Shown here one piece after another: positions 4,239 to 61,652 of a stretch of 64,000 bases of DNA. The notes beneath the pieces were generated by a model. It was given only the letters and a program-made list of their open reading frames with translations, was not told the origin of the DNA and ran no database searches. The position numbers and the translations under genes were made by a program. Positions within the stretch are counted from its first letter, which is position 1, and every line of letters starts with the position of its first letter. The stretch is from a virus: positions 13,060 to 77,059 of IMG/VR virus record IMGVR_UViG_3300017992_000021; one strand, given 5' to 3'.

Positions 4239-6026
4239 ATGCGCATCGTAGGTAAGAACTTCAAGTGCTTCAGCCACTTCGACATCAATTTCGAGCCCGG
4301 CACGAATAACGTCGTGTTGGGCGACAGCAGCGACACCGACTATGCAGACTCCAACGGGGCAGGCAAGACCACCTTGGGCATCCACGCACTATGCTGGGTG
4401 CGTTACGGTAAGTACCCCGGAATGAGTAATGTCAACAGCCCGATAAACCTCGCAGCAGGGAAAGGCTGTGAGGTTTACCATGAGTTTACAGATACTTCGG
4501 GCAATCCCTGCATCATCAAACGCAGTCGTAAGCCGACTAAGCTGGAGTTCTGGCAGAACGGTACTGAAGTCAGCGGCGACAAAGATGTCGTGCAGGAAAA
4601 GATCAACGCCGCTATCGGTTGCGATTATGATTTCTACGTTAGGGTGTTTTTATATACCGGCGCTGATGAGTTCAAGTTCGCCAAGCTTACTGATGCGAAA
4701 CAGAAAGCGATTCTCGACACCATCCTGCCAATGGACTTCGATAAGCCGCGCGAACTGGCGGTGAAGGAGCGGGACAAGATTGCACAAGCCCGCGATAATA
4801 ACCGGCGCGATGTAGCCAACGTGATCGGCGAAATCAACACCGTGGGTTCGCAGATCCGTGAAGAAGAACAGCAGATAAACATTTGGGAGACCCAAAAACA
4901 GTCTGACTGGGCCGCCATCGAACAGAACGTGAAAGCGTGGGGTAACGTCCACGCTCAGAAAAAAGTGGAATACGATGATGTATGCGCACAAGCATCCGAG
5001 ACTCTATCCGCCTACACCAAGCTCCACGATCAAGTCGTGGTTCTTAGAAAAGATCGAACAGTACTTGAGCAGAAGCTGTTCGATGAAAAGACCCGACTCG
5101 CGTCGCTGTCCGGTAACGCTGATAACCGCATCTGCCCTACTTGCCACCAACGACTCGTGGATGAAACTGCTCTGGGACACGTACAGCAAAGAGTCACCGA
5201 AGTCGAAGCCTCTGTGGCACAGTTGGAACAGCAAGTAGCCGCGCTGCCGGACTCAACTGAGATAGAACAGGAGTTCGCGAAAGCTTCTGCAGAACTGGAT
5301 CACATAACCGGCGTCAAGGAGCACATCAACAACGAGATGCGCGAGGCTATGCATCATGTTGAGACTGGCACCGCGCAACTGAACAACAAGCCCGAGGGCG
5401 ACAATCCACACATCCACGCGTGCAAACTACTCAGCGACACTTTACAAAGACACCAAGACCGCAAAGCGGAATTAGATGCGGAGTGGAACAAGTGCGAGGA
5501 CGACCTGAAAATATGGGATGCCGTTGTCGGCGCCTTCGGTGCGAAGGGTCTAAAGCACTACGCCTTCGAAACGTTATGCCCGGAGCTTACCGCGACAGCG
5601 CACACGCTACTGAAGTACCTGTCGCCGGAAGACCTCGATGTAGAATTCAGATCCCATTCAACGGGTAAGAAGGTCAAGGAGGGTTTCCACATCGCCGCGC
5701 GCCGCAAGGGCGGCCCGCAGAATTACAGCGACCTCAGTGGTGGAGAGCGGGCAAGAATTGACTTGGTGGTCTTCTTAACGCTGTTCTTGACGGCCATGAA
5801 GCACGTCAGCAATACAGGCATCGTGGTCTTCGATGAGATCGCCGATACGCTTGACGATACAGGCAAGCAGATGGTCGTTCAGTTGCTTGATTTCTTCTCT
5901 AAAGAGTATGGCGTCACTTGCCTAATGCTGACCAACGACAAATCAATCTCTTCATACGTGTCACGAGGCTACTGCTGTAAGCGTACCGGAGACGTAAGCG
6001 AGGTGGAAAGGATTTTGGAAGGATGA
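4239..6026 (+). CDS. SbcC/Rad50 (gp46-like) SMC-type ATPase
   Basis: Walker A SNGAGKTT, coiled coils, zinc hook CPTC, ABC signature LSGGE, Walker B VVFDE; start moved to the ATG after RBS GGAG. Confidence 0.93.
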   Translation: MRIVGKNFKCFSHFDINFEPGTNNVVLGDSSDTDYADSNGAGKTTLGIHALCWVRYGKYPGMSNVNSPINLAAGKGCEVYHEFTDTSGNPCIIKRSRKPTKLEFWQNGTEVSGDKDVVQEKINAAIGCDYDFYVRVFLYTGADEFKFAKLTDAKQKAILDTILPMDFDKPRELAVKERDKIAQARDNNRRDVANVIGEINTVGSQIREEEQQINIWETQKQSDWAAIEQNVKAWGNVHAQKKVEYDDVCAQASETLSAYTKLHDQVVVLRKDRTVLEQKLFDEKTRLASLSGNADNRICPTCHQRLVDETALGHVQQRVTEVEASVAQLEQQVAALPDSTEIEQEFAKASAELDHITGVKEHINNEMREAMHHVETGTAQLNNKPEGDNPHIHACKLLSDTLQRHQDRKAELDAEWNKCEDDLKIWDAVVGAFGAKGLKHYAFETLCPELTATAHTLLKYLSPEDLDVEFRSHSTGKKVKEGFHIAARRKGGPQNYSDLSGGERARIDLVVFLTLFLTAMKHVSNTGIVVFDEIADTLDDTGKQMVVQLLDFFSKEYGVTCLMLTNDKSISSYVSRGYCCKRTGDVSEVERILEG

Positions 6027-7708: not shown

Positions 7709-8242
7709 ATGATGGAACGCCGCGCTGTAGACCAGCTATTTAAGACCTCTTATATGGTCGACGTGAAACCGCACAAGATTGAGGTCTTCGAGTCAGACAC
7801 AGATCCCATCAAGAAGTGGATCTCTCTCGGTTGCGACGTGTCTGATAATTACGAATACGAGGACAAAAGCTGGCAAGACGGTTTCTTCGTTGATGCTGGC
7901 ATCAACGTATCGCTGCGACACTTCATGTGGATGCTCCGGCAGGTAAACGTCAATCACCGACACGCAATACCGTGGCTCCGGAGCGGCGGATGGGAACTCC
8001 CGCCTGACTTCCACGCGTGGCTGCACACGATCGTATTCAGCAACAACATGCAGGTAATCACGGCCTCCCGCCATCGCTTCGAGGAGGCGTGGATGCCTAC
8101 GATCTATCGCCAACGGTTCATCATCATGGAAGGCGCTGTCGTGAACGTCGATAAAGTCGTCAACGTCACCAGCGTCTGGAGCAATATTCAGGCTTACGCG
8201 CAGCTACTTGAACAACACGAAGAAACAGGAGGGGTGAGGTAA
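7709..8242 (+). CDS. hypothetical protein
   Basis: Long ORF resuming the + strand operon; TAATG overlap with the next gene. Confidence 0.6.
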   Translation: MMERRAVDQLFKTSYMVDVKPHKIEVFESDTDPIKKWISLGCDVSDNYEYEDKSWQDGFFVDAGINVSLRHFMWMLRQVNVNHRHAIPWLRSGGWELPPDFHAWLHTIVFSNNMQVITASRHRFEEAWMPTIYRQRFIIMEGAVVNVDKVVNVTSVWSNIQAYAQLLEQHEETGGVR

Positions 8243-28400: not shown

Positions 28401-31338
28401 GGATATCGAGTTGATCTTGATTGGCGACTAGTTCGGCTTCCTCTTCACGCGTCAGGGCCGCCTGACCGCCACGCGCCAGCATGGAACGCAGTTGTCCTTG
28501 ACGGATATTCAACTGCGTAATCTGCTCATTGAGTTCGTCGATCCGCGTTACCGCAGTTCCGAGGCGATCCTTGTATGCCTTAACCGCACCTTGAAGTTCC
28601 ATCAGGAACTCAGTATTGCCGCCCAGCGCCAGATTGAAATCCGTCGTTGTCGCCGAGATGATGTTGGCGACCTTTTCCAGACCCATCGCTTTATCGGTGG
28701 CGGCATTAAGTGCGCGCTCCTCTTGCTGCAGTTGCTGGAACAACCGTACGTTGAGTTTCTCTGCCACCTCCGCACGTTCTGACAGGCTTTGCTGTACCGA
28801 CTGGAGTTGCTTGCGCTGCTGGAGTTCCTGCTGCAGACGTATTTCTCGTGCCTCAGGAGATTCTTCGCCACGCGCTCCTCGACCGGAGAGGAATCCGAAT
28901 ACGCCGCCGAGACCACCGAGCGCCTTGCTCAACAGTCCGCTGATGGCACCGGCGCCTTTCGTAAGCACTTTGGTGAGTGCCGCTAACGGGCCTTCGGCGA
29001 ACATGAACTTGAAAGCGTCGCTCTCTTTAACCTTACCGCCGATGACGCGTAAGCCGTCCACCATCGCCTTGGCGCCACGCGTTACAAATTCTGCAGCAGT
29101 AAATGCGCCGGTGAACGATTGCCCGACAAGAGAACCGAGACCCTTTACAGTGGTACGCAGGAGGGCGACCGTAGCCCGGCGACTAAACGGTGCGACAAGA
29201 ACCGTACCCAGTGCGGCGAGACCAGTTTTAAATGCCGTCACGAAAAGATTAGATCCGCGCTTGGCGGTCTTTTCTATGGCGGCTTGGAACTTCTCATCAC
29301 CTAAAGAAACGACTCTCAGTATGGTCTCGATAATCGGGGCTGCCGCGCGTTCACCGCGAACGACCGTCTTGACTAGGAACTGACCGAGTTCTTTCAGGGA
29401 ATCCGATATGCCGGTTTTCACCTTATCGAAAATGAACTTGGTGAAGCCTCCAGTGCGTGCAAACAGCCCGCCGATTGTCAGGCTGGCTTTGTTAATCTCT
29501 TCGCGTGCCACAGTAATTGCTGCAGCAGTGAGGTTCTTCACGCCGCGTATCGCCGTCGGTACGAGAACGGCACCGATACCTGCGGCGAGCACCGTATTGC
29601 CTTGCGTGATCAGAGCCCCGATAAATCCCACCGGGTCGGCGGAAGTAATCGCGGTAAACGCAGCCGACATAATATTCGAAACACGCGTAGCGATGCCGCC
29701 CGGCGTAACATCACCGAACAAAGCAGAAAGTTGCGGACCTACGAGGTTCGTGATTCCCCGGAAGAAATTACTGACTAAGCTGAACACCACACCGAAGGTG
29801 CTCTCCACGAGACTGATGGCCCCCGCTTTATCAGATGGTCGCCCTAAAAGCGCCACACCGAGGAGACCGCCAATGCCGGGGAGAGCGACAGTGGCCAGCA
29901 TGCCGGATGCAATCTTGGCTGCCTTAATAAGAGAAGACCCCAGCCTGCGTCCGGTTTCAGCAGTTCTGGGGCCAGCCATTTCGTCGAGATTGGTCTTGGA
30001 TGCTTCTTCGCGCGCCATACGCAGCGCCTTAGCAGTCCGCTCGACTACAGCAGCCGGTCCCGCGCGATCTCCCCCACCAGCGGAGACCTTACTGAAGAGA
30101 CCTGCGAACTTCGCTGTTAAGTCATCGAGAGATCGGCTCATTCGAGCGAATCCATCGTCGAGACGTTTGAACAGCATGCGGAAGTTCGCGTCAAGGTTCT
30201 TGATTGTTTTGACCACCTCCTTGAAGTCAGTAATTAGATCCTTGACGCGTTTGTTAAAGCCGCCCTTCGCGAACTGGTTGATCATCTTCGCGATAGGCTT
30301 GGCATTCTTTGCAACGGCTTCGAAAATAGGGAACATCTGGCGCAGCGCGCGCAGGAATAGCGTTGTTGCCGCACGACCATCGCCGAGACTGGCTCGCAAA
30401 CCTAGCAGGAACCGACTTACCTTCGCAGATAAGAACCGCACTCCGGCTATAGCTGTGGTTGCGAGACCAACTATCGGAACGAGCGCACCACTCAATCCTG
30501 CCAGACCTGTCTGGATAGCAATGATCGTAGTAGATATGGTAGTCAGCGCCGACGTGATGAAGAATAGCCGTTCCACAGCAATTCTCGTCTTCGCCAGCAG
30601 ACCAACTAGACCATCATTCAACGCGGCTACCAACTGGGTGAACCGCGCCAGTGAACCCTCAGGTTTCTTCGACAAGAAACCCAAAAACAGTGAGGTGAAT
30701 GCACGTAGCGTACCTAGCAGAATACCCGTCGCTGAAGCTAACCCTAACGCACTTTGTGCGCCTTCAGCCAGCAAGTGCAGCAGCTTAGGAACATTCAGCG
30801 TGAACAGCACCCCCATGAATTCCTTCATGCGTGATAACAGTAAATTGGAACCGTCATCTGCCACCTTGAAAATAGAAGGCAACAGTGCGCGGATATCAAA
30901 CCCGCTCATGACCAATTTCTGTATCAGCACAGAAAGTCCCAATAGCTGGCCGAGCAACAACGGGCTGATGCGTTTTGTGGAGTCAGCCAGTTTAGAGAAG
31001 AAATTGGTAACCCCATCAGTAGCGGTTTGCTGGAGATCATCCACGCTTTTACCAATGGTGTTCTTCATCTGACGTGCGGTATTTCCTAACCGCCCGTCCA
31101 TCATGTCGAAAACGCGCGTAACGACCTGACCGAACTTTTCTGCGAGATCCGCCAATTTGGTGGCGCTGGCTTCAATCTTGTCGAGTTTCGATAGCGCGGC
31201 GTCATCAATCTGGACCTTGATGGTCGTCTTACCGGTGGTGACTTTGTTCAGCTTCTTCTGTAAATCGTCGATCCCCTTGAACACCTTGTCCAAGTTGGAT
31301 ACGAAATTGACAGCAACTTCGCCGATATTCAGAGGCAT
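22456..31338 (-). CDS. tail tape measure protein (2960 aa)
   Basis: Very long Ala/Leu/Gly-rich helical protein with N-terminal IGEVAVNF motif, hydrophobic stretches and coiled coils; follows the tail tube and chaperones. Confidence 0.92.
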   Translation of the reverse strand: MPLNIGEVAVNFVSNLDKVFKGIDDLQKKLNKVTTGKTTIKVQIDDAALSKLDKIEASATKLADLAEKFGQVVTRVFDMMDGRLGNTARQMKNTIGKSVDDLQQTATDGVTNFFSKLADSTKRISPLLLGQLLGLSVLIQKLVMSGFDIRALLPSIFKVADDGSNLLLSRMKEFMGVLFTLNVPKLLHLLAEGAQSALGLASATGILLGTLRAFTSLFLGFLSKKPEGSLARFTQLVAALNDGLVGLLAKTRIAVERLFFITSALTTISTTIIAIQTGLAGLSGALVPIVGLATTAIAGVRFLSAKVSRFLLGLRASLGDGRAATTLFLRALRQMFPIFEAVAKNAKPIAKMINQFAKGGFNKRVKDLITDFKEVVKTIKNLDANFRMLFKRLDDGFARMSRSLDDLTAKFAGLFSKVSAGGGDRAGPAAVVERTAKALRMAREEASKTNLDEMAGPRTAETGRRLGSSLIKAAKIASGMLATVALPGIGGLLGVALLGRPSDKAGAISLVESTFGVVFSLVSNFFRGITNLVGPQLSALFGDVTPGGIATRVSNIMSAAFTAITSADPVGFIGALITQGNTVLAAGIGAVLVPTAIRGVKNLTAAAITVAREEINKASLTIGGLFARTGGFTKFIFDKVKTGISDSLKELGQFLVKTVVRGERAAAPIIETILRVVSLGDEKFQAAIEKTAKRGSNLFVTAFKTGLAALGTVLVAPFSRRATVALLRTTVKGLGSLVGQSFTGAFTAAEFVTRGAKAMVDGLRVIGGKVKESDAFKFMFAEGPLAALTKVLTKGAGAISGLLSKALGGLGGVFGFLSGRGARGEESPEAREIRLQQELQQRKQLQSVQQSLSERAEVAEKLNVRLFQQLQQEERALNAATDKAMGLEKVANIISATTTDFNLALGGNTEFLMELQGAVKAYKDRLGTAVTRIDELNEQITQLNIRQGQLRSMLARGGQAALTREEEAELVANQDQLDILGAELAAELRGAKQSLDSAEEVRKLMTSAEKAYADGLIKFSKFDAGNIEQIQGELRKTPGSIRGLVVEFDDTIEALESMKAHLPPDANLDLFEKTISDLASRNEELNRRSETLRDSLGEVDGVTDALRKSITDVTEKYTVEGRTDLTNERRDLGRKIVENSKQFENATAEVLENANAMGANNRIMGTMRSRMQDLLNMFGITSDELTDTDAVFEKLNEVIVRNTQQEVIRTAQREAMTKKLLGAEAAEVQAIIDRAAEEAATIRTVKDVRVAQEKASAMREKQLNIMSAFNAIQEGELRITKELQNELGLTDQQAEVFKKSLADGSIKMGTLGASIAALEADLKFTQQRVREDIAGAAAGKVSAARIVDPATSSAMDVNAKAVIESLGEQAQVIDASVLTTKEYNAEVRKTAASLKGAVAETTAKATAGIEGGDLRKLLAVIVAAGKGRESLAQIFRDVSGSARNLRNSPIVKFADEIKKGAEPLEAFRLSIAKIGRGAPQQLEALESGLKKFFRELSRNPVFAQKVLKEFSVKTVQELAKVTEGLNNIGRALKNQLIKDITKLPAEMRTKAKRIATEGILEGIRSGLDPKQIRALVQQRLKEGLPTKDVKLRADFAASVRGVLDSISQTIGAQQQTFVQKGLMTMQLVAKGIRAGKPDIQAAVTDVFKTGVKDQTPSSLPKFGPLREAILSMAKMGPLMGESMMRGVGALRQFAANFFRGGVTDVWQDSFKVLEGTVKGFGNLVAGTFTAVAKQGESLVQVPFKIAGAFSLVLGPRIGGALNALLKLLGKFTAKVVTIPLKIAAAVSKAVAGVITGAISLIRSATTSIFNFVKDAAARITELKRQAVTAEVDLADFDRITRAFEMLGVQASQTQQAFIQLRSSVDRMIEEGGVGDLSLIFSKMGVTFDRLQELSPDEIFFRIVEALRAGVFTATEQQRVLQLIGAQFGDLKGVILDATTDINSALRSAAKIPPIGDEAVENAKLFQKITVQIEQVFERIKLVIFEELAPFLENLFKEIDSDGNDLIGKIIVWVRFIARVVFGTIAEIVRFIRMRWFEATNGVSNFIQDVSAVATGLMTFLTQALFALIRSGFKLLLLTIELAIEAMPSKLKAAIPKLLLEVILFKIRLLAVAGAAVKEFATFAWSQIRGVGIGVINWILNTVQTGFVELIKFVIDKVDVIPFVDAAEELVGTPDKIDIGKDLGFETVSFEQFLSNASNAIDKTNGMLDGLTDNFGDFVDQLVARGDVERALESMGGDAELLRRQFDDLFISNERITAQLEKQNDLIDRNVLLSSQQKVIEKGLLAARATSLRELDSATASAVELQQALRNAVALGFIKPGDIAAGQAEAVQGIIGEMAVVADRLGQDIGQSLINGLRAAEDASPAFADLFTNIENVIAEQVIRREQEMANLGASTEEVREAAHEVVREFIEMRVKLENLIPAFIAVQTQQLEFNQGIVDITGKIDRLGRVMHDIEKERLQVLTQIVKREQEEAGLLKTRIDLIFQAAEAEKTNLASASAQKAAFDIDKALQDRAESLKNARNALFVGDAESAKKFAEQAQMATDAFNDALQTLAPRAAEHLKLENPLPEVLFTWLENLDVTQPVIKKAEEIRNLMSEGLSDLGAEALESAMSRGEIAARFAEFKQRIEATIGEGDAESLRIAGETVGLLDRQLQTRENILDRVNTLKIVAQARAAAEREITREESKRERARARGAVEPTTDFDVSGARDFRNEVLSIRKILNDAALSADELKKALKEEGVDVDFGVDLDNIEGLVERVKEALKDREIEILVRPFVDEKISAPVASSVGEIFSGAIDGSLKESIRTAREEARKQGRDIQDWIFVTAQFAKRIFDQVLGDVTTSFVKGLQENLTSALSKVLGTTSALAVQGALLIGSAVLSKLQENATVVQDTVESAVESTEAIRGVISGTTTVAIKEVEEAFRASNRGIELRLDVIIDLMRQGRPLAAGAGLGNAPATAIP

Positions 31339-32518: not shown

Positions 32519-33736
32519 TTAGACGCAGGAGCCCTGCGGGGATACATAGAAGTCGCGGAAGTCCTTGAACAGCACGAAACGGCCACGACGGCCAATACCG
32601 TCGTCGAGGATCGTGCATGTGATCCCGGCTTTCATGAATTCCTGCGGGTTGACAGTGATGGCGCCATTCAGAGCGATGGAGACATTGTAGAACTCGTAGA
32701 ACCCTTGCGGGCCGTTGTTCGACAAAATCTGCACACGCAGCGCACCCTGAAGTGCGATGCCGTCCTGAAGGCTGTAATCACACGCCTCGCGAGTGAAGCT
32801 GTACACAATGCGGACCTGACCACCGTCAGGGATGGCACCCGTGCCAATGCGCTCGATCGTAGCGGCGGAAGTCGCCACTGCAGAAGCGAACGAGAACGGG
32901 CCGCCACCGAGATCGGTGTCGAGGTTGCCAGTTGCCGTGATGTCATCAGGATCAACGCCGTCGAGGGCGTTGGCATTGATGGTGACCACAGAACCGGCGA
33001 CAGTCGCATGGAAGTACGTACCGGCGTAGGCATTAACCGCCTCCGCAAGAGCGGCGGCGAGTTCGCCCGTAGTACCGAGGCTAGCTTCAAAATTTGAGGT
33101 AGCGGTAAGAGTGATCGTACCGCCAGTCTCTGGATTCGGAAGAACAAGCGTATCGGTACCGCCGTACGTAACACCACTAACCGTGATCGCCACGGTCGAG
33201 TGCGTACCGGCCACTGCTGCCGTAGGTGTGTAGTCCGTGCCAGAAACGTACTGTACAGAACCATTGAGGTTTGTGACCTCGATGATTGTGGTCGCACGGT
33301 TACTGAGAGCGCCACCAGTGACGCCTTCGACCGCTACCGGTGCGTAGGCTTCGGCGGTGGTACCGCTCAGGCGGACACGGGCTGCCTCGTACACCGTTGC
33401 CGAATTGGCGGCGGTGTCATTACGATCAACGATCGTGGCAGAGCGGAACATGATTTCGAGGTTACGGCCAACCAACTCTGTCATCGACAGGTTGATTTCA
33501 CCGGCATTCTCTCCGACCATGCGCCGTACGGTCGAGTAGATACCCAACCGGGCCGACTTCTTTTCAACGAAGTTCTCAGTGATGTTGAGTTCAATGTCCT
33601 CAACGTCGCCGAGTTCGAAATACTGCCCTTGGGTGTTGTTAGCATCGAAGGGAGCAAACCACGCTGAAATGCGAGACGGGAGAGTAAGATTCTGCGGATT
33701 GAATGGCCGCACAACTTCGCGTGCTATTGCAGGCAT
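32519..33736 (-). CDS. major tail tube protein with Ig-like/decoration insertion
   Basis: Position and following terminator; YFELGDVEDIELNITE and GALRVQ...YEFYNVSI tube-like halves flanking a Thr/Gly-rich insert. Confidence 0.8.
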   Translation of the reverse strand: MPAIAREVVRPFNPQNLTLPSRISAWFAPFDANNTQGQYFELGDVEDIELNITENFVEKKSARLGIYSTVRRMVGENAGEINLSMTELVGRNLEIMFRSATIVDRNDTAANSATVYEAARVRLSGTTAEAYAPVAVEGVTGGALSNRATTIIEVTNLNGSVQYVSGTDYTPTAAVAGTHSTVAITVSGVTYGGTDTLVLPNPETGGTITLTATSNFEASLGTTGELAAALAEAVNAYAGTYFHATVAGSVVTINANALDGVDPDDITATGNLDTDLGGGPFSFASAVATSAATIERIGTGAIPDGGQVRIVYSFTREACDYSLQDGIALQGALRVQILSNNGPQGFYEFYNVSIALNGAITVNPQEFMKAGITCTILDDGIGRRGRFVLFKDFRDFYVSPQGSCV

Positions 33737-51063: not shown

Positions 51064-51066
51064 ACG

Positions 51067-51097
51067 AAAACCCCCTGTGCCGGGCTAACACAGAGGG
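51067..51097 (-). terminator. terminator-like hairpin immediately upstream of terL
   Basis: CCCTCTGTG...CACAGGGGG followed by TTTTCGTTT. Confidence 0.6.
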
Positions 51098-51186
51098 CGT
51101 TCGACAGGTAAGAACAGACGCCTTAAACGGGAGCGGAGGGCATGTGTGAGGTGAGTGCGTGGCCCCGTCGCTAGCGCATCGTCGAA

Positions 51187-51216
51187 ATTCTACTCCACCC
51201 TCTGTATTGGTGTCAA
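51187..51216 (-). promoter_or_regulatory. sigma70-type promoter
   Basis: TTGACA-18 nt-TAGAAT. Confidence 0.7.
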
Positions 51217-52865: not shown

Positions 52866-52940
52866 TGGATGCGGCGGAAGGACTCGAACCTTCGACGGGA
52901 GGATCAAAACCTCCTGTGTTACCGATTACACCACGCCGCA
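52866..52940 (-). tRNA. tRNA-Gln(TTG)
   Basis: TGCGGCG/CGCCGCA acceptor, GGAGG-TTTTGAT-CCTCC anticodon arm, GAAGG-TTCGAGT-CCTTC T-arm, encoded CCA. Confidence 0.96.
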
Positions 52941-53046: not shown

Positions 53047-53220
53047 TTTCCGTGGTTGGACGCTAGCCGACTCCATCACAGGTTCGAGCTACCTTCAGGC
53101 GCACGCAGCCCTTTTTACGGTCCGTGAGCCTAAAACGGCGTGGCAATCGCCGACGTGCTTTGCTGTCCGCCCACGGACACGGAGCCGGTAGCTGGGTCTT
53201 GCCATGACCCCCAACCGAAA
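53047..53220 (-). ncRNA. uncharacterised highly structured RNA with kissing loop and pseudoknots
   Basis: Helices GGTTGG/CCAACC, GGGTC/GACCC, AGCTACC/GGTAGCT, GTCCGTGGGC/GCTCACGGAC, CGGCG/CGCCG; complementary loops TGGCAA and TTGCCA. Confidence 0.7.
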
Positions 53221-53227
53221 AATAAAC

Positions 53228-53323
53228 AGGGCGTGAGCAGGAATCGAACCTGCGGGTAGGCATATCCGGAATACAGCCCACAGCCATCTTTCAGGCCGCG
53301 TTTACCACTTCGCCATCACTCCC
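53228..53323 (-). ncRNA. class-II tRNA-like RNA with aberrant anticodon arm and very long variable arm
   Basis: D-arm GCGAAGTGGTAAACGC, T-arm GCAGG-TTCGATT-CCTGC, acceptor GGAGTGA/TCACGCC; no CCA. Confidence 0.8.
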
Positions 53324-53335
53324 TGCCAAAGAGCA

Positions 53336-53401
53336 AGCCTCATCGTCCCTTGTGGAGAAAGCGCGCCATCTTTATCAGGCAAACCATTTTACGACGAGGC
53401 T
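53336..53401 (-). ncRNA. hairpin RNA carrying a GCCTGA...GATGGC motif
   Basis: 11-bp closing stem AGCCTCGTCGT/ACGATGAGGCT; internal GCC-TGATAAAGAT-GGC. Confidence 0.6.
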
Positions 53402-53405
53402 AATT

Positions 53406-53475
53406 TGGTGGAGGCGGAGGGAGTTGCACCCTCGTCTTCGACACCACTATGTGTCGAGCGTTCCTACGCGCCCCC
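53406..53475 (-). ncRNA. minimal tmRNA-like RNA (tRNA-like domain only)
   Basis: GGGGGCG/CGCCTCC-A-CCA with G3:U70, stemless D-loop, GAC-GAGGG-TGCAACT-CCCTC; 7-bp hairpin in place of the mRNA-like domain. Confidence 0.8.
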
Positions 53476-53560: not shown

Positions 53561-53637
53561 TGGTAGCGGGGGGTGGATTCGAACCATCGACCTTCAGGTT
53601 ATGAGCCTGACAAGCTGACCAACTGCTCTACCCCGCA
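53561..53637 (-). tRNA. initiator-type tRNA-fMet(CAT)
   Basis: U1xU72 mismatch, GCGGGG/CCCCGC, TCAGG-CTCATAA-CCTGA, TTCGAAT T-loop, A73-CCA. Confidence 0.93.
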
Positions 53638-55389: not shown

Positions 55390-55853
55390 TATTCAATGAC
55401 CCCGTAGTGGCGCATTACCCTATCAAAATCTGACGCCTTGATTCTCGCCCGGCGCACGCACACATCCCGCAACTGCTTGTACCCAGTAGGACCAAGCTCC
55501 TTAAGACGCTGAACCGCACCAATCCCGAACATAAAACATTCAAGACGGTCAACGGGTTTGATTTCGCTAATTTTGTAACGACGGCCTACGTATATCTGCT
55601 CAGCACCCACTATAACTTTCCGAGCATAAGCGAGTCCTCTCCGACGCGTAGGCGGCACTGAGGGTGTGCAACAACCGCTACCCCACCAGTCCAGATCGCA
55701 ACTGTTCAGAATTTCACACACGAGGTACTCACGCGGCTTACCGGGCACTCGGTTACTCTCGCACTCCGGCCCGATCCAGTACCGCAGATTAGGCGTTACA
55801 TAGAGCAGCCCGTGTTGAATACAGATGATTTCAGGCTTTTTGGTCTTCGCCAT
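55389..55853 (-). CDS. Cys-rich hypothetical protein
   Basis: ATG after RBS GGAGAGG. Confidence 0.55.
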   Translation of the reverse strand: MAKTKKPEIICIQHGLLYVTPNLRYWIGPECESNRVPGKPREYLVCEILNSCDLDWWGSGCCTPSVPPTRRRGLAYARKVIVGAEQIYVGRRYKISEIKPVDRLECFMFGIGAVQRLKELGPTGYKQLRDVCVRRARIKASDFDRVMRHYGVIE

Positions 55854-56397
55854 TTTCCTCTCCGATGAATTCACCGTAGTCGGTGATTAGTTTACCGTCT
55901 AAGTGATCGATCTCGTGCTGAAGACAACGTGCGGCTAAGCCGAAGAACGTTTCTTCCTTCAGCACGCCCTTGCGATTTGAATATTTCACACGTATCCGCA
56001 TCGGACGGCTGATCATGACTTTGTTCTTGGCACCAAACGTCAGGCAGCCTTCAGCAGCCGGTTCCTCGTAGTCGATCGTCTCGATGATCACAGGGTTAAT
56101 CAGCGCGAGGCGCTGCGTGATGCACATGACAACTACCCGCTTGCTACAACCGACCTGTGGTGCGGCAAGACCGATGCCCTTGTGCTTGGACATCAACCAG
56201 TACATGTCATTGATGAGCACCTTGAGTGCATCATCGATGTACTTGACACGCTCGGCCTTCTTCTTCAGCACCGGGTGATCCGGCGCTACCAAGCTCGTCC
56301 ACTTCTTTGCTCGTCTGACCTTACCTTTACCCAACGTTCTTCCTTTCTTTTCTAGCCTTCTTGACTTTACGCTGCTCAGCATAATTAACCCTGACAT
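55831..56397 (-). CDS. def: peptide deformylase
   Basis: All three PDF motifs: GIGLAAPQVG, EGCL, QHEIDHLDG. Confidence 0.96.
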   Translation of the reverse strand: MSGLIMLSSVKSRRLEKKGRTLGKGKVRRAKKWTSLVAPDHPVLKKKAERVKYIDDALKVLINDMYWLMSKHKGIGLAAPQVGCSKRVVVMCITQRLALINPVIIETIDYEEPAAEGCLTFGAKNKVMISRPMRIRVKYSNRKGVLKEETFFGLAARCLQHEIDHLDGKLITDYGEFIGEENGEDQKA

Positions 56398-60098: not shown

Positions 60099-60484
60099 TT
60101 TGATTTCTCCTTGCGAGCTTTATCGATCTCGTCCTTGAGTTCCCAGAGCGCCTCTTTGCGATGACCTATGTGAGCCCACTCGGCATCTAGTGCGCCCCAC
60201 GATTCACCGCAGATCCTGTGGAGTACCTCGCCGAGCCTATCTTTCAAACCAAGGTCGGTAATTACCACCATCTCGACATTATGCAGGGCGTCCAGTGACG
60301 TGAAGAAATGAAACCCTCCGGATCTCCACGCATCCGCCTCTGTTTTTCCAAATGCGCCACTTACTAAAACATCGTTCAGATTAAACAAGAAGTACAGCCC
60401 GGCCATGGCGGCAGGCGGTTCTGACTGTTTGACGTAGTAACCTAACACGCTCGCACACCAAGCGTTGAATTCGTGTTCGTCCAT
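60095..60484 (-). CDS. hypothetical protein
   Basis: Coupled stop/start on both sides. Confidence 0.6.
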   Translation of the reverse strand: MDEHEFNAWCASVLGYYVKQSEPPAAMAGLYFLFNLNDVLVSGAFGKTEADAWRSGGFHFFTSLDALHNVEMVVITDLGLKDRLGEVLHRICGESWGALDAEWAHIGHRKEALWELKDEIDKARKEKSK

Positions 60485-61113
60485 TACTTCTCCTGCGGCC
60501 AGATCGTCTTCAAACCGAGCATGACGTGCTGCTGCAATGTTGACACACCGTCGACGATCTCGGCATTATTCCACGGGCGTGGATAAACGATTGCATGTCC
60601 GCCCGCATCAACGAACTTCTTGCAGTTCTCTGCGCTGTCATCGATGAGCACTGCGTCATGTCTGGCAAGCTGCTCTTTGTGACTGGTGAAAATGAACTCC
60701 TTGAAGTCCAAACCAAAAATGTCCTGCAACCACAGCATCTTACCGGCCAGACAATCGGCGATACCTTGACCACGACCGCCCGGCGTTGACAAGAATATCA
60801 CGCGAGCGAAAGTGTCTTTGAGGTTGTAGTAAAATTGACGCGGGCTGTCGTAACAAGGTAGGGTTCTCCAGAAACGTACGCCACCACGCTCGATCTGCCA
60901 CCACATCTCCTCTTCAGGCACGCCGAACTGCTCTGACATCTCGTAATCGCCACGAGGCCAGCGACCAATAAGCTGGTTGTAATTAGGGATGTCTTTGTTG
61001 CAGTAATACCGCAACCAATCTGCGACACCCTTCACGATGTCTACAACAACCCCGTCCATATCGAGGTAGATTACCCGCCCTCGTGCGGGATCAGTCGCTT
61101 GCATCATTCCCAT
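60484..61113 (-). CDS. HAD 5'(3')-deoxyribonucleotidase
   Basis: YLDMDGV, LSTP, GKMLWL, LIDDS, PRPWN. Confidence 0.9.
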   Translation of the reverse strand: MGMMQATDPARGRVIYLDMDGVVVDIVKGVADWLRYYCNKDIPNYNQLIGRWPRGDYEMSEQFGVPEEEMWWQIERGGVRFWRTLPCYDSPRQFYYNLKDTFARVIFLSTPGGRGQGIADCLAGKMLWLQDIFGLDFKEFIFTSHKEQLARHDAVLIDDSAENCKKFVDAGGHAIVYPRPWNNAEIVDGVSTLQQHVMLGLKTIWPQEK

Positions 61114-61115
61114 CG

Positions 61116-61652
61116 TTAAAGCCTCTCTTCATCGTCATCGAGCGGCTCGTAGTTTTCAAACATGCGCTCAATAACAGGGATTAAATCGTCTCTGTTACTG
61201 GACTTGGCCCGCTGGATGCACAAGTCGATGCTTGCCGTGAACTCATGCACGCGCACGGCCCAGTCACCGTCGCGCCACTCATCACGACGCTTGCGTGTTG
61301 TGTTTGTAGCGTCAAGGACTACCTTGTCATGGCCTGCCAGAAATAGCGCCTTGACCATTGTCTTTGCGATAGCCCACACAAAGGGCTCTGCTGCCTTAAT
61401 ATATGGTTGCTCGTGCATGGCTAACCGAATGCTATCGGGATTCACAACAGGAACCCCCGATGCACGTGCCCACATTGATTTACCTGCGCGGGGTAGACCC
61501 ATCAGCATGATCAACATTTTTTCACTCACGTGTTCCCTCCACTCGCTTTCCGTTGTTAGATAAACGCCCGCGATGACCTTACCATCGCGAATCGCCTCTG
61601 GGAAATCAGGATGTTTCCGTTTAGCTAAACTCATTAATGCTCTCGATATCAA
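61116..61652 (-). CDS. AAA_33 P-loop kinase (PNK-like)
   Basis: GLPRAGKS, NPDSIR, VLDATN, CIQR; true start may be downstream. Confidence 0.85.
   Translation of the reverse strand: MISRALMSLAKRKHPDFPEAIRDGKVIAGVYLTTESEWREHVSEKMLIMLMGLPRAGKSMWARASGVPVVNPDSIRLAMHEQPYIKAAEPFVWAIAKTMVKALFLAGHDKVVLDATNTTRKRRDEWRDGDWAVRVHEFTASIDLCIQRAKSSNRDDLIPVIERMFENYEPLDDDEERL

Follow-up and report, generated by a model that had tools for sequence, protein, structure and literature searches.

The question raised by this locus is whether a gene that keeps the body of a transfer RNA (tRNA), with its anticodon arm replaced, is a working RNA of its virus or only the remains of a tRNA. The gene lies on the minus strand at 53229..53323 (from G-1 to C73) of the 64,000 nucleotides (nt) analysed here, which we call the window and which belong to the 77-kb IMG/VR record IMGVR_UViG_3300017992_000021, about 82% complete. 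It is a genuine tRNA-derived gene. We consider the chances about equal for and against its product being a maintained, non-decoding RNA with a tRNA frame, made and processed together with the surrounding tRNA cluster; the explanation that has to be weighed most seriously against this one is a young pseudogene.

The tRNA nature of the gene is indicated by the Rfam model RF00005, matched with 35.9 bits, above its gathering score of 29 (E=1.3e-5 for a 1.1-kb stretch, with permissive filters), in an alignment that skips the 35-nt centre as a local insertion. The Rfam scan with default filters does not report the gene, and ARAGORN at default settings finds no gene at 53229-53323. The same sequence, with zero differences, is present in independently assembled Logan contigs from three public DNA runs (one of them possibly the source sample, and two apparently from a single data set); hence, the gene is no assembly artefact, and the runs offer no population variation for analysis. 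There is no RNA run among the public runs listed as holding the stretch.

Numbering follows the minus strand, with G-1 at 53323, +1 at 53322, C73 at 53229 and U74 at 53228, and gives a length of 94 nt from 53322 to 53229. The 5' strand of the acceptor, GGAGUGA (53316..53322), pairs with UCACGCC at 53230-53236, with A3 (53320) opposite G70 (53232). The D arm, of the GGCGAAGUGGUAAACGC type (53298..53313), has G18G19, a 3-bp stem (G10-C25, C11-G24, G12-C23), and U8, G9, A14 and A21 in place. The Rfam alignment locates the T arm GCAGG-UUCGAUU-CCUGC at 53237..53253, where G53-C61 closes the loop and the loop bases are U54 U55 C56 G57 A58; a Levitt pair is possible between G15 and C48. An earlier note on this DNA described canonical D and T arms and an intact elbow, and all of them are confirmed in the sequence; the acceptor/T minihelix and the parts read by ribonuclease P (RNase P), by the CCA-adding enzyme and by other readers of the elbow and the acceptor are intact as well.

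The centre is different. In the ViennaRNA fold, the position of the anticodon arm is occupied by hairpin 1 (53282..53297), which has the 8-nt loop UGAAAGAU on 4 bp (G26.U41, G27-C40, C28-G39, C29-G38), and the position of the variable arm by hairpin 2 (53256..53281), consisting of 6 bp, a bulged U and 5 bp under a CCG triloop. This agrees with the replaced anticodon arm and the variable arm of about 11 bp reported previously, as do the A3:G70 mismatch and the lack of an encoded CCA. The helix of hairpin 2 contains three G.U pairs, owing to which the sense strand is 6 kcal/mol more stable than the antisense; the folding model thereby makes this long helix strand-specific. Part of the centre is a 7-nt tandem duplication, GGCUGUG/GGCUGUA, read from the sequence at 53272..53285. 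The heptamer CUGUGGG, containing the anticodon GUG, falls within the duplication region and is buried in helices of the favoured fold.

The two-hairpin fold (-34.1 kcal/mol) is the ViennaRNA minimum, also with the cloverleaf frame enforced, and the fold presenting GUG in CUGUGGG reaches -21.0 kcal/mol, which is 13 kcal/mol worse. A 5-bp stem with a 7-nt loop (U33, an anticodon and a purine at 37, R37), i.e., a canonical anticodon arm, is absent from the favoured fold. Neither ARAGORN run with introns permitted nor a scan of deletions made in silico reveals a single deletion that restores a high-scoring tRNA at this gene; the best one (19-20 nt) produces a tRNA-Arg(CCG) that passes the 110% threshold setting with a poor stem, and at the 70% threshold ARAGORN calls a tRNA-His(GUG) in the unaltered gene. 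On these predictions, the RNA is unable to present an anticodon at the normal place.

At the other end of the molecule, the 3' trailer UGUUUAUUUUU (53218..53228) directly follows C73 and ends in a U-tract. Its pairing with the leader prolongs the terminal helix by G-1:C73, A-2:U74, C-3:G75, G-4.U76 and G-5.U77 (three Watson-Crick and two G.U pairs). CCA is not encoded after C73, whereas it is encoded in the tRNA-Met, the mini transfer-messenger RNA (tmRNA) and the tRNA-Gln of the same cluster. The previous statement that both decoding and charging are lost can be retained in its first half, considering the cost of the GUG fold; the loss of charging is unsupported because CCA can be added post-transcriptionally and G-1:C73 is present.

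RNAs of such a shape have precedents. The record of phage T5 (NC_005859) annotates RNA1 (30501-30644) and RNA2 (32959-33083) as “tRNA-like stable RNA with unknown functions” within the tRNA cluster, and both fold as tRNA frames with foreign centres. The gene in the window shares with them, on loose criteria, the location in a phage tRNA cluster, the tRNA-type terminal stem, D arm and T arm, and the replacement of the anticodon arm by another folded RNA. RNA2 has an 8-bp terminal stem, like the stem extended here by G-1:C73, and a T arm identical at 15 of 16 positions to that of the window gene. The differences are also clear. Apart from the generic arms, the sequences show no similarity; with 125-144 nt the T5 RNAs exceed the window gene in length, and their centres are bigger and of another build. 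RNA1 scores only 24 bits on the tRNA model compared to 35.9 here, and the T5 RNAs are annotated as stable while the window gene is known from sequence alone. By analogy, we take the gene to be of the same kind as RNA1 and RNA2, a kind that is precedented and unexplained.

The gene is a part of a 770-nt non-coding cluster on the minus strand, about 1.8 kb upstream of the terminase gene, in the order tRNA-Met, mini tmRNA, 62-nt hairpin RNA, the tRNA-shaped gene, a structured spacer of about 175 nt, and tRNA-Gln. One promoter-like site is found upstream of tRNA-Met; another, TTGACA-17-CAAAAT, is located between the tRNA-shaped gene and tRNA-Gln, alongside the spacer. We presume that the tRNA-shaped gene is co-transcribed with the cluster. 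RNase P would excise the RNA at -1 or +1, with G-1:C73 favouring -1 as in tRNA-His, and the 3' end would be trimmed or else terminated at the U-tract. The leader-trailer helix could shift RNase P to -1; alternatively, it may hold the end closed and serve in termination. The RNA would accumulate as a stable L shape displaying its elbow and acceptor end to tRNA-binding proteins, with two hairpins in the place of the anticodon, and would deliver no amino acid to any codon. Its centre may have been rebuilt by small insertions, including the 7-nt tandem duplication.

Comparison with relatives was possible at some distance only: a search of IMG/VR and the JGI metagenomes for terminase relatives gave lineages at 77%, 64% and about 50% identity. 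The closest, L014/L015 (77%), have a tRNA-Gln directly preceded by a 124-nt tmRNA-like element with G3.U70 and ACCA. No tRNA-like gene is detected at the corresponding place in L014/L015, even by the sensitive Rfam scan; they carry instead two multi-branched RNAs of about 110 nt (L014:4793-4900 and 4909-5022, plus strand) with long closing stems (8-12 bp) followed by U-tracts in U-rich tails, and with z-scores of -3.2 and -2.4. Neither gives an Rfam match. The second of them contains a T-arm-like GGGG-UUCAACU-CCCC and a D-loop-like hairpin in a non-tRNA order.

The lineage L002/L016 (64%) has a different anticodon-less frame upstream of the packaging genes (L002:2629-2790, the same in L016:3668-3772, plus strand), with a class-I body scoring 45 bits on the tRNA model, a 10-bp central stem, a large loop and an 8-bp terminal stem (C-1:G73). 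In L002 it is preceded by its own promoter, TTGACA-17-TAGGAT, ending about 10 nt before the RNA, and its tail (UUUAUUUUU / UUUAUUUUUAUUUUU) includes a U-tract resembling that of the tRNA-shaped gene; judging by these signals, it looks like a free-standing small RNA gene. The lineages with terminase identity of about 50% show no such frame. One of them, L039, has directly upstream of the terminase (7739-7851, plus strand) a match to the alphaproteobacterial small RNA ar14 whose loops are rich in CCUCC and which is weak, at 32.5 bits not reaching the gathering score; for the corresponding place in the window, 51064-51216, a C/U-rich RNA had been noted before.

Outside these relatives, three pattern scans of IMG/VR found the same centre or 3' half in no other contig; what they returned, if anything, was unrelated frames or a coding coincidence (L017). 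When the gene or its 5' third was compared with cultured phages by BLAST, all matches were generic T-arm ones or due to chance. From these searches, the gene appears lineage-specific. What does recur is the type of construction. Of the phage lineages with this D arm, more than half do not have it in an ordinary tRNA; in their frames, the stretch from the D arm to the T arm is taken up by unrelated inserts. The frames sharing the D-arm 18-mer are those of L003/L004, L009 and L012/L013 from IMG/VR and of L034, a Limnocylindria metagenome-assembled genome, with unrelated centres of 50-110 nt and mostly a -1:73 pair, which four of five such lineages keep through different base pairs; in L003/L004 the D and T arms are identical to those of the window gene, and the acceptor is altered by compensatory pairs. 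A -1:73 pair is present in five of the seven aberrant lineages (G:C, C:G, U:A, U:A, A:U); this is a small sample, comprising the window gene, the L002 frame with its different D arm and a tRNA-Tyr with an insert, and we claim no family for it.

The tRNA-Tyr in question is on the minus strand of IMGVR_UViG_3300018495_000076 (L010), at approximately 2280-2410. It is a class-II tRNA-Tyr(GUA) whose anticodon stem is interrupted, in its 5' strand, by an insert of 44 nt that includes a hairpin; in-silico deletion of the insert gives a high-scoring tRNA-Tyr, and the case is different from the window gene. The insert could be an unusual short intervening sequence or the mark of a disrupted gene.

We can now return to the pseudogene, which we regard as a real though distinctly lesser probability. 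On this explanation, a phage tRNA of His-, Tyr- or Ser-like type recently lost its function through replication slippage and short insertions, both affecting the anticodon region, and through one substitution in the acceptor; it has no selected role, and its intact arms merely reflect its youth. The observations in its favour are the same that weigh against a maintained RNA. The A3.G70 mismatch and the tandem duplication resemble damage, and the missing CCA, encoded in all three neighbours, is counted toward a relic. The folding energy of the whole RNA is no better than that of shuffled sequences (z -0.65), and that of the centre is marginally better (z -1.6; hairpin 2, z -2.2). The promoter scan gives no evident promoter of the gene's own. 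The extended leader-trailer pairing could hinder RNase P and not help it. Finally, the gene is absent from the nearest relatives and has no second copy in IMG/VR; since the nearest relatives are without it, there is no support from covariation or conservation.

The maintained non-decoding RNA is supported, against this, by the following. All the bases of the elbow tertiary contacts are intact and the RF00005 score is above the gathering score; the minimum fold is the two-hairpin one, with its three G.U pairs confining the long helix to one strand; and the terminal helix is prolonged by the leader-trailer pairing and followed by the U-tract. The motif of hairpin 1 is repeated in the adjacent hairpin, and the mini tmRNA, another mimic, is next door. 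Analogous anticodon-less frames recur in other phages, one of them with its own promoter in L002, and T5 RNA1 and RNA2 are precedents for stable RNAs of such a shape. The preference for a decoy over a pseudogene expressed previously is too strong, considering that the relatives have no such gene and that the duplication and the acceptor mismatch look like lesions. A normal tRNA-Ser or tRNA-Leu at this place in relatives had been named as an outcome that would refute the earlier interpretation; the relatives carry no tRNA here at all, which neither refutes nor supports a function.

The ancestry of the gene bears on the remaining alternatives. It was previously assigned to the Leu/Ser type, which we could not uphold. 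The D-arm 18-mer UGGCGAAGUGGUAAACGC is rare: in a search of about 186,000 prokaryote species, each represented by a single genome, it occurs among genuine tRNA genes only in tRNA-His(GUG) of Oligoflexales and Virgibacillus, and in IMG/VR it occurs in class-I tRNA-His, tRNA-Ile(GAU) and tRNA-Gln(UUG) and in the class-II tRNA-Tyr with the 44-nt insert. As it is found in class-I tRNAs, the D arm is no marker of class II. The likeness to class-II tRNAs (Leu, Ser, Tyr) consists of the five-way junction, the long extra arm before the T arm and the 3-bp D stem; however, the 11-bp extra arm is longer than natural variable arms, and the arm in the anticodon position has 4 bp and an 8-nt loop. The discriminator is A73 for Leu and Tyr and G73 for Ser; bacterial class-II tRNAs thus have A73 or G73, and C73 is found here.

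C73 belongs to the pair G-1:C73 (53323/53229) typical of tRNA-His, although the pairing runs four pairs past it into the flanks, so it may not be His-specific. In comparison with the canonical bacterial and phage tRNA-His(GUG) of L006, L020 and L028, the D arm through G26 is identical (19 nt) and G-1:C73 is common to both, and the T-loop is the same as in the phage tRNA-His of L006; the tRNA-shaped gene differs by about 21 extra central nt, the buried GUG, the lack of CCA and the acceptor mismatch. CUGUGGG is flanked by four of the five possible pairs, and remnants in the centre resemble the 3' anticodon-stem strand and the variable loop of tRNA-His. On the other side, MAFFT favours a different alignment from the one with tRNA-His remnants, a GUA (Tyr) relic is equally readable in the centre, and GUG is not found in a 7-nt loop, given the same folding penalty. 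The ancestor is uncertain; the sequence somewhat favours a His-type tRNA with a 3-bp D arm over Leu/Ser.

Apart from the pseudogene, the rival explanations are improbable even when taken together. The first of them is a chargeable decoy, which we consider improbable: after cleavage at -1 and addition of CCA, the RNA would be a substrate of histidyl-tRNA synthetase (HisRS) through G-1:C73, or of seryl-tRNA synthetase through the long arm. Charged without ever decoding, it would titrate the synthetase, EF-Tu or a defence nuclease that targets tRNAs. HisRS depends mainly on G-1:C73, and the D arm, as noted, is identical to that of genuine tRNA-His genes. The HisRS of E. coli charges irregular G-1 tRNAs that take no part in decoding (PMC5389517), and the gene is a neighbour of a mimic of known inhibitory type (PMC11915505). 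It is difficult to reconcile a decoy with the absence of the CCA that the neighbours encode, or with the pairing beyond -1:73, which suggests a closed end and not a free acceptor; the HisRS rules are those of E. coli and may not be those of the host. In the part of the phage covered by the record, moreover, no genes were found for a CCA-adding enzyme or RNA ligase/repair, nor for SmpB, L7Ae-family (PF01248) or TROVE/Ro proteins.

The irregular G-1 tRNAs and inactive allo-tRNAs described by Mukai et al. in 2017 (PMC5389517) are similar in being tRNA-shaped RNAs from metagenomes and phages, some with five-stem junctions, that may keep a synthetase identity and are not translational. They keep a recognisable anticodon arm and the 8/4 or 9/3 acceptor/T geometry, while in the window gene the T stem has 5 bp and the anticodon arm is missing. 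The likeness to allo-tRNAs suggested previously fails in the same respect: in place of a 12-bp branch divided 8/4 or 9/3, the branch here is 7/5, or 8/5 with G-1:C73. The tRNA(Other) of Bacillus cereus (PMC3399842) is, as far as the cited account goes, also a tRNA-like and non-translational RNA that affects the cell; it differs in being chromosomal, in keeping its anticodon arm and in its unrelated sequence.

The neighbour mentioned above is a 70-nt mini tmRNA (53406..53475, minus strand) consisting of the tRNA-like domain only (RF00023, 35.7 bits, below the gathering score of 47; fold z -3.2). It has the acceptor strands GGGGGCG/CGCCUCC with G3.U70, the tmRNA-type UCGAC motif, a T arm and an encoded ACCA; the mRNA-like domain is replaced by a 7-bp stem with a 6-nt loop, and there is no tag reading frame. 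An element of conserved form is present in L014/L015, where it measures 124 nt, and two unrelated phages of IMG/VR, L225 and L182, have similar ones of 80 and 82 nt, respectively. tmRNAs of about 65 nt without a tag reading frame are described in plastids and in mycobacteriophage DS6A, and the DS6A tmRNA inhibits the endogenous tmRNA in E. coli (PMC11915505). There is, then, at least one tRNA mimic in the cluster that belongs to a type known to be inhibitory; this makes a mimic role of the tRNA-shaped gene somewhat more plausible and is not evidence for it. A two-piece tmRNA made of the 3' end of the mini tmRNA and the 5' end of the tRNA-shaped gene (RF04321, 19 bits, E 0.17) was rejected, since the mini tmRNA's own 5' strand pairs perfectly.

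The adjacency allows for an extended proposal, which we think very unlikely: the two would form a pair of non-decoding mimics, where the mini tmRNA blocks trans-translation and the G-1:C73 frame is charged like tRNA-His or occupies a host factor or a defence nuclease, without ever decoding. If it were true, the pair would be a small RNA toolkit to take over or shield the host translation machinery.

We find it hardly probable, too, that the gene is a carrier or processing handle, where the tRNA body stabilises the transcript, directs RNase P and 3' processing or termination, and either displays hairpin 1 as a protein-binding site or frees the flanking RNAs. This proposal draws on structured RNAs being present on both sides, on the U-tract that comes after a closing helix both here and in L002 and that also follows the structured RNAs in L014, and on the motif of hairpin 1, GCCUGA-AA-GAUGGC. 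The latter has two copies within 100 nt and is not found elsewhere in the 64-kb window: the other copy, GCCUGA-UAAA-GAUGGC, is about 70 nt upstream at 53365-53380, in the 62-nt hairpin RNA with a 9-bp closing stem (53338..53399, minus strand). The similarity is modest, the alignment score being reached by 4 of 500 shuffles (p ~0.01), and the terminator scan makes no call at the U-tract 3' of the tRNA-shaped gene. The reading of hairpin 1 as a kink-loop (K-loop) in another note on this DNA does not hold: only 2 nt (AA) separate A32 and G35 of the would-be tandem sheared G.A pairs, a K-loop or kink-turn needs 3 nt or more in its loop, and no L7Ae-family gene is found in the phage. The upstream copy, with its 4-nt loop, could accommodate tandem G.A pairs and a K-loop.

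Least credible, almost to the point of being negligible, is an odd but working decoding tRNA that would read codons with the GUG heptamer, carried by an arm with a long neck (His), with CCG (Arg) in UUCCGGA at the apex of hairpin 2, or as a frameshift suppressor with its 8-nt loop, since against the low-threshold tRNA-His and post-deletion tRNA-Arg calls of ARAGORN stand the energy of the His fold, the wrong distance of either anticodon from the elbow, the missing 5-bp arm with its 7-nt loop, and the empty default result.

Other RNA families do not account for the gene. In tRNA-Sec (RF01852), the geometry is 8/5 with a 6-bp D stem and UCA; here the D stem has 3 bp, there is no UCA loop, and RF00005 is the best model in the clan competition. 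The tmRNA features (G3.U70, GGGG..UCGAC and CCA) belong to the neighbour at 53406-53475 and not to the tRNA-shaped gene. A comparison with YrlA, also proposed earlier, gave no Y RNA or YrlA match up to E 10; besides, the gene ends in an acceptor stem, and no TROVE gene accompanies it.

The interest of the gene is that it is a compact example, 94 nt with a clear anatomy, placed beside a second mimic in a lineage without a cultured relative. If such frames are functional, they would point to tRNA mimicry at the RNA level as a phage strategy. If the gene is a fresh pseudogene, slippage in the anticodon region can yield an RNA that looks designed, and this is a caution for similar finds.

Concerning the virus itself, the source metagenomes of the record are from sediment or seawater. 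The gene content of the window includes a terminase, a peptide deformylase, a sigma-70-family factor, ThyX and MazG. The terminase is at most 25% identical to that of any GenBank phage, so that this lineage has no cultured relative there, and the look-alikes of the deformylase are uninformative for the host. For the neighbour gene of 113 amino acids, no relatives at all were found.

The two tRNAs at the ends of the cluster were found by both ARAGORN and Rfam, and both encode CCA: tRNA-Gln(UUG) is the last, at 52866..52940 (minus strand), and tRNA-Met(CAU) is the first, at 53561..53637 (minus strand). The latter has an initiator-like U1.U72 mismatch at the top of its acceptor, and the peptide deformylase gene is at 55831-56397 (minus strand); taken together, these are a hint of tinkering with translation initiation. 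Elsewhere in the window, at 60484-61652 (minus strand), a gene for an AAA_33 P-loop kinase adjoins a gene for an NT5C/HAD-type phosphatase, and the pair could serve nucleotide metabolism or be a split polynucleotide kinase-phosphatase.

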